Shown here: positions 1,657 through 25,111 of the stretch, in pieces | Numbering within the stretch: position 1 is the first letter of the stretch | How the letters are laid out: each line of letters opens with the position of its first letter | Assembly (NCBI GenBank): GCA_036516995.1 | Contig: DATDYW010000056.1 | Location: forward strand, 1 to 30,672 | Source of the DNA: Minisyncoccota bacterium | GTDB taxonomy: Bacteria > Patescibacteriota > Minisyncoccia > Phycocordibacterales > JAACPR01 | Reading direction: 5' to 3' | DNA: 30,672 nucleotides | Notes under the pieces: generated by a model | The model's database searches: none | Seen by the model: the letters and a program-made list of their open reading frames with translations, nothing else | What the model was told of the DNA's origin: nothing | Position numbers and translations under genes: made by a program

Positions 1657-1739
1657 GCCCAGGTGGTGGAATTGGTATACACACACGCTTGAGGTGCGTG
1701 ACCGTTTACGGTATGCGGGTTCAAGTCCCGCCCTGGGCA
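1657..1739 (+). tRNA. tRNA-Leu (anticodon GAG)
   Basis: Acceptor GCCCAGG/CCTGGGC, D-loop GGAATTGGTA, anticodon stem CACGC/GCGTG with loop TTGAGGT, long variable arm, T-arm GCGGG-TTCAAGT-CCCGC, discriminator A; CCA not encoded. Confidence 0.96.
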
Positions 1740-1952
1740 CACAAGAAATCACCCCGCCGCCGAGGCGGGGTGATTCTTTTGATGTGTGTGCCCAGGGCGG
1801 GACTTGAAAGCCGGAGCGCACCGGAGCGAAGCGGAGGTCTTCGACGAGCTTCCCAGCGAGGAGAAGGCGCGAGCCGGGGTCGCGGGTACTTAGGTTTTTG
1901 GATTCGCAGAGCGAATTCAAAAAACTTAGTAACCCGTGACCAAGTCCCGCCC
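1720..1952 (+). repeat. tRNA-anchored structured element, copy 1 (arms match tRNA-Leu)
   Basis: Perfect 24-bp inverted repeat of the tRNA 3' end (1720-1743 / 1785-1808), then a 132-nt core (1809-1940) shared with the tRNA-His element, then a third T-arm copy CAAGTCCCGCCC (1941-1952). Confidence 0.9.
1747..1780 (+). terminator. Terminator-like hairpin after tRNA-Leu
   Basis: AATCACCCCGCC / GGCGGGGTGATT 12-bp stem followed by CTTTT. Confidence 0.65.
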
Positions 1953-3673: not shown

Positions 3674-3746
3674 GGTGCCTATGGTGTAACGGTTAACACT
3701 CGAGCTTGTGGAGCTCGCAATATGGGTTCGACTCCCATTAGGCACC
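3674..3746 (+). tRNA. tRNA-His (anticodon GTG) with encoded G-1
   Basis: G-1 at 3674 opposite C73; acceptor GTGCCTA/TAGGCAC; anticodon stem CGAGC/GCTCG with loop TTGTGGA; T-arm ATGGG-TTCGACT-CCCAT; CCA not encoded. Confidence 0.96.
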
Positions 3747-3966
3747 CTCGCTCCGATCCGAACCCGGCGCCGCGCCGGGTTTCGGCATTGGAGGAGCGAG
3801 GGTGCCTAATGGGAGTCGAAAGCCGCAGCGCACCGGAGCGAAGCGGAGGTCCGGCCCGAGCTTCCCAGCGAGGGCCGGGCGCGAGGCGGGGTCGCGAGCA
3901 CTTAGCCGAATGGGATTCGCAACGCGAATTCCACGAGGCTTAGTGACTCGTGACCGATTCCCATTA
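3727..3966 (+). repeat. tRNA-anchored structured element, copy 2 (arms match tRNA-His)
   Basis: Perfect 28-bp inverted repeat (3727-3754 / 3793-3820) around an inner hairpin, a 134-nt shared core (3821-3954) and a third T-arm copy CGATTCCCATTA (3955-3966; 11/12 match to the tRNA). Confidence 0.9.
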
Positions 3967-3987
3967 CGTACCTGCTATCCTCTCACC

Positions 3988-4527
3988 ATGTTTCTCGCAG
4001 AAATTCGTGGAACAAAAATCCACCTGAGGCCCTACCAGCCCTCCGACATTTCCGCTTGGCAGCGGTGGGACGTTGACCCAGAGGTGCAGAGGCATATGCC
4101 CGGCTCTCTCAACGCTCCCGTTTCGGATGAAAAGCAGCTCGAGTACCTAAAAGAGTGCGAGGGCGAGCGGGACGGGGTCTACTGGAGCGTAGCCAGCAAT
4201 GGCGGCGACGTCCTCATCGGCAGCGTTGCCATCACCGGCATCAGTGACGGAGCGGGAGAGCTCGGAGTCGTGATTGGAGAGAAAGATTACTGGGGGAAGG
4301 GAATCGCGCTGGAGGCTGTGACGTTGGCGTGCGGCGCGGCGCTCAGGGAACTTAACCTCAAGAGCGTCTTCGCCGAGTACGAGGAGGGAAACGTTGGTGC
4401 TCAGAAAGCGCTCGAGAAGGCTGGTTTTGTCAGAGAGGCTTTTCTGGAGGGCTCACGCGATAAAGACGGATTGAAGATAAACACTTTCAAATACGTCCTG
4501 ACTAACAAATTGCAAAACTCTGACTGA
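3988..4527 (+). CDS. GNAT family N-acetyltransferase (RimJ/RimL-like)
   Basis: IHLRPY..SD, ELGVVIGEKDYWGKGIA (acetyl-CoA motif A), N..AQKALEKAGFVREA. ATG 3988 is 6 nt after TGCTATCCT; the track's upstream extension runs through the tRNA element. Confidence 0.9.
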   Translation: MFLAEIRGTKIHLRPYQPSDISAWQRWDVDPEVQRHMPGSLNAPVSDEKQLEYLKECEGERDGVYWSVASNGGDVLIGSVAITGISDGAGELGVVIGEKDYWGKGIALEAVTLACGAALRELNLKSVFAEYEEGNVGAQKALEKAGFVREAFLEGSRDKDGLKINTFKYVLTNKLQNSD

Positions 4528-10083: not shown

Positions 10084-10110
10084 TTGTAGGGAGAGTCTGT
10101 GCTTCTGCAA

Positions 10111-10224
10111 CGGGAGGCTCCATTCGGCGCGCAAAACGGTCTCGTACGCCTCGCTCTACATTCGTAGCGCGTCGGCTAGCGAGAACCGTTTTTCGCATCC
10201 AAATGTTGCCTCTGTGGTGATTCG
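10111..10224 (+). repeat. Structured palindromic repeat SR-A (~115 nt family)
   Basis: Starts CGGGAGGCTCCATTCG and ends GTGGTGATTCG; nested stems; homologous to 22394-22507 and 24998-25111. Confidence 0.88.
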
Positions 10225-10310
10225 ATTAGGACGAGTAATTTCAGAGGTGACAGTTGGAGCCGAAAACCGTTTCCGTGGTGACTCGTTTAAGGAAAGAAAA
10301 AAGAAACATG

Positions 10311-21694: not shown

Positions 21695-22393
21695 ATGTCC
21701 ACCGAGACCAAGAGCTCCGTCGCGATTCCGGCCGCCATCGTCGTCGCCGGCCTCATCATTGCCGCCGCCGTTTTCTTCACCCGCGGCGCGGCGCCCGCTG
21801 GCACCACCGCCGCCAAGCCCGCGGCCGCGGGCGACCCCAAGGCGGTCGCCGCCGTCACCGCCGCCGACCACATCCGCGGCAGCCTCGATGCGCCGGTGAA
21901 GGTTGTCGAGTACTCCGACATCGACTGCCCGTTCTGCCAGCGCGTCCACCCGACGCTCAAGCAGCTTCAGGCGGAGTACGGCGACAAGGTCGCCTGGGTG
22001 TACCGCCACAATCCAATCACCGGTCTTCACCCAAACGCCGAGACAAAAGCTATTGCAACGGAGTGCGTTGCTAAACTTGCGGGCAATGATGCCTTCTGGA
22101 AATTTCTAGATGCAGTTACCGAAGATACAGCTCCAGGTCGCAACGACCTCACCCGTCTCCCGGCCTTGGCTGCAGAGGCAGGCGTGACCGACGCCGCGGC
22201 GTTCAAGGAGTGCCTGGATAGCAAAGAGGGACTTTCAAAGATTAAGGCCGACATGGCGAACGCAGCCGCGACCGGCGGCCGCGGCACGCCGTGGACCATC
22301 GTGGTTAGCAAGGACGGGAAGGAGGCGGTGGCGGTATCCGGAGCGCAGCCCATCGATGCCTTCAAGGCGGCGGTAGATTCGATTCTCAAATAA
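21695..22393 (+). CDS. DsbA-family thioredoxin-fold protein (membrane anchored)
   Basis: N-terminal TM helix, GSLDAPVKVVEYSDIDCPFC, GTPW cis-Pro loop, GAQP. Confidence 0.92.
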   Translation: MSTETKSSVAIPAAIVVAGLIIAAAVFFTRGAAPAGTTAAKPAAAGDPKAVAAVTAADHIRGSLDAPVKVVEYSDIDCPFCQRVHPTLKQLQAEYGDKVAWVYRHNPITGLHPNAETKAIATECVAKLAGNDAFWKFLDAVTEDTAPGRNDLTRLPALAAEAGVTDAAAFKECLDSKEGLSKIKADMANAAATGGRGTPWTIVVSKDGKEAVAVSGAQPIDAFKAAVDSILK

Positions 22394-22507
22394 CGGGAGG
22401 CTCCATTCGCCGCGCAAACCGCTCCTCCGCCCCTCGCCGTACAGGAGTACGTCGTCGGGGACGGTCGGGGCGGTTTTCGCTGGCGACTGTCGCCTCCGTG
22501 GTGACTC
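22394..22507 (+). repeat. Structured palindromic repeat SR-B
   Basis: Begins immediately after the DsbA stop with CGGGAGGCTCCATTCG and ends GTGGTGACTC. Confidence 0.88.
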
Positions 22508-22617
22508 TCGGCCAAAAGATCGAATCTTTAAGATCCGATCTTTTGTGTGGCACCTTTTTACTTCTTCCTTCGTCTGGTGCTACGATACCCGAGCCAAATT
22601 AACCCTTACGTCGCAGT

Positions 22618-24978: not shown

Positions 24979-24997
24979 ATTTAAAGTAGGAGATACA

Positions 24998-25111
24998 CGG
25001 GAGGCTCCATTCGGGCCGCAAACCGTGCCGCTACGCCTCGGAGTACATTCGTACACCGTCGGCTAGGCGTCAGCGGTTTTCGGCGCCGACTGTCGCCTCC
25101 GAGGTGATTCG
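24998..25111 (+). repeat. Structured palindromic repeat SR-C
   Basis: CGGGAGGCTCCATTCG...GAGGTGATTCG, 19 nt after the rplK stop. Confidence 0.88.

Follow-up and report, generated by a model that had tools for sequence, protein, structure and literature searches.

A folded, protein-less element behind tRNA genes of Patescibacteria, bracketed by inverted and direct copies of the tRNA 3′ end

The unit behind tRNA-Leu and tRNA-His

We analyzed a repeated DNA element in a 30,672-nt stretch ("the window"), which is contig DATDYW010000056.1 of the Minisyncoccota bacterium assembly GCA_036516995.1 (contig C56 of genome G000 below; 705 kb, 63% G+C, 47 tRNA genes). The window contains two tRNA genes, tRNA-Leu(GAG) at 1657–1740 and tRNA-His(GTG) at 3675–3747, both of which are intact, lie on the (+) strand and were recognized by ARAGORN and Rfam. 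Downstream of both genes the parts follow in an identical order: the 3′ segment of the tRNA gene itself (P), a hairpin module (H), an inverted copy of that segment (X′), a core of more than 130 nt and a direct copy of part of the tRNA end (x). An initial annotation, made from the sequence of the window, had described this layout at both loci, and its coordinates proved exact (inverted copies of 24 and 28 nt; direct copies identical at 12/12 and 15/18 positions).

At the tRNA-Leu locus, where all parts are on the (+) strand, the tRNA gene is preceded by a sigma-70-like promoter (TTGAAA, a 16-nt spacer and CATAAT; 1614–1641), which is the only (+) strand promoter-like site able to feed the element via read-through. 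Segment P (1720–1743) runs from T54 in the T loop to the discriminator and includes 3 nt of the trailer; the inverted arm is complementary to all of it, and the direct copy corresponds to 1722–1733 within it. Module H (1744–1784) consists of an A-rich trailer, a GC-rich stem-loop of 12 bp (1747–1775) and a T tract, and it scores as terminator-like on both strands. The inverted arm X′ (1785–1808) is a perfect reverse complement of 1720–1743 (24 nt, 100% complementary) and ends at the complement of T54 (...ACTTGAA). The core then begins with a 5′ domain (1809–1877), comprising the junction AAAG, helix P2 (CCGG/CCGG) around variable, covarying hairpins and a conserved CGAGSCGGGG, and continues with a 3′ domain (1878–1940) formed by the long hairpin P3 (GGTCGCG.. 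ACTTAG .. CTTAGT.. CGTGAC), in which a G-U pair is conserved and the ACTTAG/CTTAGT segment has one unpaired position in the consensus fold. The direct copy x (1941–1952) repeats tRNA residues C56 to C67 at 12 of 12 positions (1722–1733 = 1941–1952) and pairs with 1795–1805 of X′, which closes the core.

The tRNA-His locus, also on the (+) strand throughout, repeats this arrangement with other letters. Here, segment P (3727–3754) reaches from T54 to the 3′ end plus 7 nt of the trailer, module H (3755–3792) is a GC-rich stem-loop unrelated in sequence to the Leu hairpin, and X′ (3793–3820) is a perfect reverse complement of 3727–3754 (28 nt, 100% complementary). The core (3821–3954) is followed by a direct copy (3955–3972) of residues C56 to C73, identical to 3729–3746 at 15 of 18 positions. 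In both loci the inverted arms extend beyond the tRNA end into the trailer, and the gap between the tRNA-side arm and its inverted copy (41 nt for Leu, 38 nt for His) holds a GC-rich hairpin flanked by A and T tracts. The two cores, 132 and 134 nt long, can be aligned end to end and are 84% identical over the first 95 nt. The unit has no internal open reading frame (ORF), and a coding function of the core is ruled out by indels of 1 to 4 nt between copies and by compensatory changes in the stems.

An assembly artefact, which had been named as a way in which the description might fail, was excluded: independently assembled contigs from three public runs, covering 1665–1979 in two runs and 1665–1955 in the third, cross the 3′ part of the tRNA gene, the hairpin, the inverted arm, the core and the direct copy and match all junctions with 0 differences.

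The Leu unit is followed by a pyrimidine-rich tail (1953–2010, (+) strand) with the terminus ..TTTTGCTGGGGCGATGC; it carries TTTGCATTACTGGGGCGATCGC at its end, then ..AAAGAAAA, and recurs on contigs C2, C3, C4, C15, C22, C26, C38 and C45 of the same genome. Its motif CTRGGGCGAT has 16 matches in the genome (one of them in repetitive, coding-like sequence), 11 of which, all in one orientation, lie within ~110 nt 3′ of an element. Three readings of the tail are conceivable: the element may in fact end there on its right side, the tail may be a third module, or it may act as a promoter for the gene that follows. Behind the His unit, a GNAT acetyltransferase gene (3988–4527) begins 16 nt past the element. 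Elsewhere in the window, another repeat family (ACGGGAGGCTCCATTCG ... GCCTCCGTGGTGAYTC) is found at 10100–10290, 22390–22510 and 24990–25110, 3′ of (+) strand genes. A link between these repeats and the element core was rejected, as the two have only a GTGAYTC-like end in common.

Copies across the genome and the class

Every tRNA gene of the G000 genome was scanned for an inverted copy of its own 3′ end. This revealed exact inverted matches of 12 to 36 nt, ending at the complement of T54, for ~28 tRNAs, and in these loci the direct copy, which starts at residue C56, is typically located 165 to 225 nt downstream. The longest inverted match of tRNAs that lack a core was merely 5 to 9 nt, i.e., background, and the matches between arms and tRNAs far exceed chance. 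A covariance model (R1), built from an alignment of six copies (A1) and yielding 173.7 bits for the His core, identified 42 copies in the genome after opposite-strand shadows had been removed from the counts. Twenty-seven of these lie no more than 400 nt 3′ of a co-oriented tRNA gene, compared with 0.56 expected by chance, and they occupy 24 of the 47 tRNA genes, i.e., about half of those in this ultra-small bacterium. Four more copies are situated at contig ends; in three cases, the copy adjoins what the break has left of a tRNA or tRNA-like fragment, namely its 3′ end. The element repeats evidently break up the assembly.

One of the contig ends has an unusual structure. On contig C1 (1–450), a core with tRNA-Glu-type arms adjoins the complete T arm and acceptor 3′ strand of another tRNA-like sequence (CCAGG TTCGACT CCTGG CGCGCGC A) instead of a Glu-type direct copy; behind this tRNA-like fragment stands a second unit of its own. 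No tRNA 5′ half is present in this region, and tRNA-Asp was not found in the G000 assembly.

The element is not confined to this genome. Model R1 found matches in 29 of 41 related genomes, representing 19 of 28 genera, with 18 copies in the congener G001, 41 in the congener G002 and 1 to 10 in the other positive genomes, so that copy number among the 41 relatives varied from 0 to at least 41. Another 83 DNA stretches share an exact 18-mer of the core; almost all of them belong to Patescibacteria assemblies (with the labels Paceibacteria/Parcubacteria, Campbell-, Kaiser-, Yonath-, Taylor-, Nomura-, Wolfe- and Lloydbacteria). Class-wide, 103 of 122 profile matches lie within 600 nt 3′ of a co-oriented gene for a tRNA or transfer-messenger RNA (tmRNA). 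The upstream gene is a tmRNA gene in four loci, where the order of terminator hairpin, inverted arm, core and direct copy is kept. Thus, the combination of a constant core with tRNA-specific arms, proposed from the two loci of the window, holds for ~24 to 28 tRNA species here and for tRNA and tmRNA genes across the class. The prediction that fixed terminal repeats would be lacking was borne out as well: the arms change with each tRNA, only a T-loop-derived stretch of 7 to 9 nt is common to them, and terminal inverted repeats of the kind seen in miniature inverted-repeat transposable elements (MITEs) are missing.

Cores behind different tRNAs of this genome are 92.5% (His and Glu(CTC), the latter on another contig), 90% (Glu(TTC) and Leu(CAG)) and 88% (Ser(CGA) and Val(GAC)) identical, whereas the orthologous Leu elements of G000 and G001 are 77% and the neighbouring peptidase genes 73% identical. 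A comparison of filled and empty orthologous loci revealed that tRNA-His, filled here, is followed in both congeners by a plain terminator and no element. Because core identity exceeds that of the congener orthologues and the tRNA-His site is empty in both congeners, the simplest account would be a recent spread between tRNA loci in this lineage, with each copy bearing the arms of its own tRNA. Gene conversion among existing copies could also raise core identity, but it would leave the empty His sites unaccounted for.

Next to the long cores of ~130 nt, to which both window copies belong, we found short cores of ~85 nt. In the short type, a conserved, covarying hairpin of 25 nt splits X′ no more than 1 nt from the boundary between the complements of the acceptor and T stems. 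Tandem arrays of at least two units are present at tRNA-Glu(CTC), tRNA-Thr, tRNA-Ala(CGC) and tRNA-Ile, with the distal units truncated or decayed, which suggests that new units enter beside the tRNA. Cargo is carried at tRNA-Gln(CTG), where a gene for a 158-aa membrane protein lies between the tRNA and its arm-matched X′-core-x; the perfect direct repeat at its boundaries is 25 nt or longer, with 8 nt of the trailer among them. A GNAT gene, a small ORF and a TrpF-like gene are cargo in other genomes; the GNAT gene (locus L087) is inserted between tRNA-Asp and its element. In G001, positions 270–1920 of contig C37 (L051/L043) hold a repeat-rich, secreted-type ORF of ~480 aa together with element remnants, and this insert separates the tRNA-Leu element from an M16 peptidase gene that adjoins it in the window. 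The region 3′ of the Leu element is a hotspot for gene gain.

The hairpin modules fall into three families, each of which follows more than one tRNA, independently of core type, and has no other site in the genome. One of them, with the stem AAAATCAAAAACCGC, stands behind tRNA-Val(TAC), tRNA-Tyr and the tRNA-like fragment (G000 contigs C7:3879, C22:11339 and C1:253), and its asymmetric 12-nt loop is inverted in the Tyr locus, as expected for a product of recombination between inverted arms. The idea that the hairpin is each tRNA's native terminator was rejected for several loci, as families are common to different tRNAs and the tRNA-His terminator of the congeners is unrelated. The hairpin is an element-borne, second mobile module, and one tRNA segment is present three times in alternating orientation (P, X′, x), bounding two separable modules, the hairpin and the core.

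Within this genus, the palindromes formed by P and X′ are perfect, and their arms reach up to 36–40 nt. Arms of this length were found at locus L032 (G002) and at tRNA-Tyr of G000, one of them with a self-complementary AATT centre; the persistence of such palindromes suggests that palindrome-cleaving activity is weak or absent. Outside this genus, X′ resembles mainly the T loop and T stem of the tRNA. Against the acceptor part, the best ungapped alignment of X′ averages 5.7 of 8 nt, and it is perfect in no more than 6 of 63 loci, whereas x, counted from C56 to the discriminator, is identical at all positions (18/18) in 16 of these 63 loci. Since the acceptor match of X′ is poor and x is often perfect, the conserved pairing is that of X′ with x, not that of X′ with the tRNA. 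In 9 of 33 loci, 8 nt or more of the trailer are part of the direct repeat, as in integrase att sites. A chimeric x, composed of a donor T loop and a target acceptor, was considered and found only at tRNA-His, i.e., it is not general. CCA follows x but not the gene in seven loci (L035, L038, L085, L115, L132, L110 and contig C35 of G000), where the gene has a CA-rich trailer instead; the reverse was seen in one locus.

Fold, strand and candidate enzymes

RNAalifold predicted a three-way junction from the six copies, in which the inverted arm pairs with the direct copy as helix P1, a 4-bp helix closes the 5′ domain and the long 3′ hairpin is stacked on P1. In a covariation alignment of 90 copies from across the class (A2), 91.8% of the cells were paired (68% in shuffled controls and 34–41% with slid partners), 50 of 54 base pairs changed on both sides, and the covariation score was 0.41, compared with 0.06 to 0.07 in slid controls. 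Alignment A2 was fitted to the model, which favours structure; despite this, the effect size and the slid controls leave little doubt about the fold.

The fold is also strand specific. Two G-U pairs are conserved (columns 179/279 and 183/277), and G-U pairs outnumber A-C pairs by 270:43, or by 134:43 without these two. The (+) strand folds at −90.2 kcal/mol (z −7.1) vs −77 kcal/mol (z −4.5) for the (−) strand. From the excess of G-U over A-C pairs and the better folding of the (+) strand it follows that the fold is selected on the tRNA-sense strand. An RNA of the minus strand, with a tRNA-like 3′ end toward the shared terminator, was rejected, having the weaker fold and A-C in place of G-U. 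The fold-bearing strand could act as RNA or as single-stranded DNA.

A fold selected on the tRNA-sense strand with many G-U pairs would suit a structured RNA that the host uses and that is made by read-through from the tRNA promoter. Such an RNA might be a processing or quality-control device, a bistable switch or a tRNA-like small RNA whose X′/x helix would mimic the acceptor/T-arm minihelix and whose release and maturation would be the work of RNase P, RNase Z and the CCA-adding enzyme. The last version would agree with the one-armed tRNA topology of the short subfamily, whose 25-nt hairpin lies at the acceptor/T-stem boundary, and with CCA being commoner after x than after the gene, but no RNA run with the sequence of the region was found. 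Likewise, the element is co-oriented with the tRNA and 3′ of it, yet a strong terminator stands between the two and no promoter-like site was found for the element. X′ does have two exclusive pairings, on which the initial annotation had based a switch acting on tRNA maturation. However, in read-through RNA the hairpin of the tRNA with its anti-tRNA arm would be favoured by 18 (Leu) and 25 (His) kcal/mol, which would leave the tRNA misfolded and amount to a cost more than to an evident benefit, the pairing between tRNA and X′ is unconserved outside this genus, and in the tRNA-Ala copy the perfectly complementary arm abolishes G3-U70. The switch is thus unsupported, even though both of its pairings exist and it would be possible on energetic grounds. 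Patchiness (close relatives carry between 0 and at least 41 copies, and tRNA-His is empty in both congeners), tandem decaying arrays and orphan copies also argue against a host-used RNA, and we regard all its versions, the tRNA-like small RNA included, as unlikely, while still deserving of consideration.

We then turn to the enzymes encoded by the 41 related genomes. IS110-type DEDD (RuvC-like) transposases were found in 0 of 41, whereas the same search gave matches in 6 of 14 model genomes used as a control. TnpB was present in one genome, without co-occurrence with the element. Reverse transcriptases (17/41), large serine recombinases (23/41) and Y1 transposases (15/41; 11 of 29 genomes with the element and 4 of 12 without) were all uncorrelated with the element, and reverse transcriptase was missing in the copy-rich congeners G001 (18 copies) and G002 (41 copies). 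Hence, a dedicated enzyme of the IS110, TnpB, reverse transcriptase, serine recombinase or Y1 type was rejected, and the co-occurring reverse transcriptase or HUH gene for which the initial annotation had suggested looking did not emerge. A tyrosine recombinase is encoded in 40 of 41 genomes, usually as a single Xer-type gene, but its co-occurrence is uninformative since element-free genomes have it as well. The only tyrosine recombinase of G000 is of the Xer type (429 aa) and is encoded on contig C21, away from the element. The host Xer-type recombinase is a candidate solely by virtue of being nearly always present. G000 also has four weak Y1 (HUH)-like ORFs of ~225–260 aa (C71:254–562, C17:5207–5431, C17:14312–14536 and C18:6865–7083); the two on C17 form an inverted pair and may be related to another repeat family.

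The lack of a co-occurring dedicated protein would fit an element that guides itself: an RNA or single strand with one arm per strand of the tRNA gene, which would programme a recombinase or be catalytic, its arms being rewritten at each insertion by target priming or template switching. Antisense and sense copies of one target do flank a conserved scaffold, but these arms pair with each other and would compete with target binding, and they are far longer than known guide segments. The scaffold stays constant while the arms differ at no fewer than 24 targets, and CCA follows x in some loci; still, the IS110-type enzyme is found in 0 of 41 genomes, reverse transcriptase is missing in two of the three copy-rich genomes, and the hairpin module that travels along would be needless for a guide. 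We consider such guidance distinctly improbable.

Searches of collections gave no relative of the core. Rfam covariance models assigned it to no family at gathering or at permissive thresholds, tRNA being the only family to pass, with nothing but chance-level hairpin matches on the core at E-values up to 10, and full-text literature searches found no published description of the element, in agreement with the initial impression that no named element has this layout. A phage or plasmid origin was rejected, as the core had no match in phage or plasmid records; the single viral-contig match, inside a coding region, was due to chance. These searches bear on the view that the units are scars of ordinary integrase islands or prophages, with the core a leftover attP arm region. 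Such scars would account for a direct repeat of the tRNA 3′ end that begins in the T loop, for tmRNA genes as further targets and for cargo genes now and then. They would not account for ~45 near-complete copies of a single 130-nt fold within 705 kb, none of them close to an integrase, for base pairs that covary across a bacterial class, for a single core that serves more than 20 tRNA specificities or for the lack of matches in phage, plasmid and viral-contig collections, and we hold this origin to be very improbable.

A proposed integrative cassette and its relatives

The reading that we favour, with a probability of about one half, is that of a non-autonomous, protein-less integrative mini-cassette with a folded site that mimics its target, specialised on the 3′ part of tRNA and tmRNA genes. 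Its grounds are the layout, the tie to tRNA and tmRNA genes, the strand-specific fold, the spread, the arrays and occasional cargo, and the absence of a dedicated recombinase; the use of the fold as a recombination site (in DNA or RNA), the enzyme and the route by which the arms are set are steps that we infer. The unit would consist of P, the terminator-hairpin module, X′, a three-way-junction core of ~85–135 nt and x. Pairing of X′ with x would turn the core into a hairpin whose stem, on the tRNA-sense strand, is a replica of the 3′ duplex of the tRNA gene, and this stem, capped by the conserved core, would be a folded attachment site mimicking the target. The direct repeat from P to x would represent attL and attR of an insertion into the segment from the T loop to the 3′ end, and the hairpin module would serve as terminator for the rebuilt tRNA gene. 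Strand exchange would be done by a host enzyme, for which the single Xer-type tyrosine recombinase is the only near-universal candidate. The arms might equal the local tRNA by being made from it at insertion, as the initial annotation had proposed, but gene conversion within the palindromes after insertion would explain perfect arms equally well; the perfect P/X′ palindromes of this genus might reflect frequent conversion between the inverted arms, the sequence itself being dictated by selection on the tRNA.

Several observations weigh against the mini-cassette. Some copies lie away from any tRNA and have arms that are not tRNA-like, so that the expected position of the core next to tRNAs holds for the majority of copies and not for all. 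The core was never seen in inverted orientation, despite its position between inverted repeats. The G-U bias would be no less expected of an RNA than of single-stranded DNA, and the excess of CCA at x, which is suggestive rather than significant, hints at a step through mature tRNA. No enzyme is tied to the element, Xer also being present in element-free relatives. A crossover in the T loop with the 3′ end of another tRNA would break the target tRNA, which leaves colonisation of new tRNAs unexplained. Finally, neither an excised circle nor an empty/filled polymorphism within a population nor a strain-level insertion was seen: the 3′ 23-mer of tRNA-His matched only unrelated organisms in metagenome contigs, and contigs mapped to the window contained joints between different copies only, none of them skipping an element. 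As no excision product or strain polymorphism was seen, the case for mobility comes from the comparison between species.

The direct copy, which runs from T-loop residue C56 to the discriminator, is what insertion into a tRNA gene classically leaves behind. Crossover in the T loop reportedly defines one of the "sublocation" classes of tRNA- and tmRNA-gene integrative elements distinguished by Williams 2002. The element shares with elements of this class, and with tycheposon arrays (bioRxiv 10.1101/2020.12.28.424599), a target at the 3′ part of tRNA and tmRNA genes that leaves the gene intact, a far end that is a direct copy from C56 to the 3′ end, sometimes with trailer, tandem arrays with decaying distal copies and occasional cargo. 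It differs in measuring only ~200 nt, in lacking an element-encoded integrase at the att site, in the additional inverted copy of the target and the conserved folded core, and in the use of one core family for more than 20 tRNA species per genome. The initial annotation had set the unit apart from integrase att sites, but the direct copy places the unit closer to integrative elements than had been thought.

Comparable folded sites are the integron attC and the attP of CTX phage, which likewise form an imperfect palindrome at the cassette end that is read on one strand. As in attC, non-Watson-Crick positions are conserved, structure is kept more than stem sequence, and cassettes stack at a fixed site. 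However, the R″/R′ core sites (RYYYAAC / GTTRRRY) are absent here, the arms are tRNA-derived (…ATTCGAA / CGAATCC…), and there is no IntI and no second tyrosine recombinase. In addition, the stem copies the target and the loop is conserved, which is the reverse of attC, and recombination through a single strand would be supposed by analogy.

Host Xer is known to invert and delete dif modules, which have alternating sites, and integrative mobile elements exploiting Xer (IMEX) likewise have no recombinase of their own (PMC13141974). With the dif modules of Acinetobacter plasmids and with IMEX (PMC13141974, PMC6449649), the element has in common the lack of its own recombinase in the presence of host Xer and independently assorting modules bounded by alternately oriented copies of one site, but the repeated site is here a segment of a tRNA gene and not a dif-like 28-mer, and a role of Xer is suggested by analogy. 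MITEs, repetitive extragenic palindromes and bacterial interspersed mosaic elements (REP/BIME) and IS200/IS605-derived palindromes are short, protein-less, highly folded and present in many copies as well; theirs are fixed termini or hairpins and identifiable enzymes (DDE, Y1/RAYT, TnpB), whereas here the termini vary with the target and neither Y1 nor TnpB co-occurs. The bridge RNAs of IS110/IS1111 are similar in being structured, non-coding scaffolds that match both target strands, but the 41 genomes have no DEDD transposase, and the arms of 12–36 nt pair with each other and are integrated as copies of the target. We place the element with tRNA-gene integrative elements and folded att sites, and there is a real chance that its mechanism is new.

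A further step would be to regard the fold as a self-contained, re-writable attachment site, in which a conserved scaffold carries a stem that copies the target duplex, with one arm per strand, so that a housekeeping enzyme or the nucleic acid itself could insert DNA behind any tRNA gene, the arms being rewritten for each target. We think this rather unlikely. If true, it would represent protein-less, programmable, site-specific insertion and be the basis of an integron-like cassette economy at the tRNA genes of Patescibacteria.

Beyond the initial annotation, the present work adds a test of the strand, tests for co-occurring enzymes, a dating of the spread against the congeners and the hairpin as a second mobile module, together with the largest expansion encountered, at about half of all tRNA genes. 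The fold is a large structure with strong covariation for which Rfam has no entry, and the element explains assembly breaks at tRNA genes in these organisms. For the host, the element has a potential cost, as read-through beyond the terminator would trap the tRNA in a hairpin of 24–40 bp. If the mini-cassette reading holds, ultra-small Patescibacteria, which are almost without classical mobile-element machinery, would run a widespread cassette system at their tRNA and tmRNA genes that rests on a 130-nt fold and host enzymes. This would offer a new model of target recognition, in which an att site copies its own target, and a handle on the gain and shuffling of accessory genes, of which GNAT, TrpF-like and membrane-protein genes have been seen as cargo.

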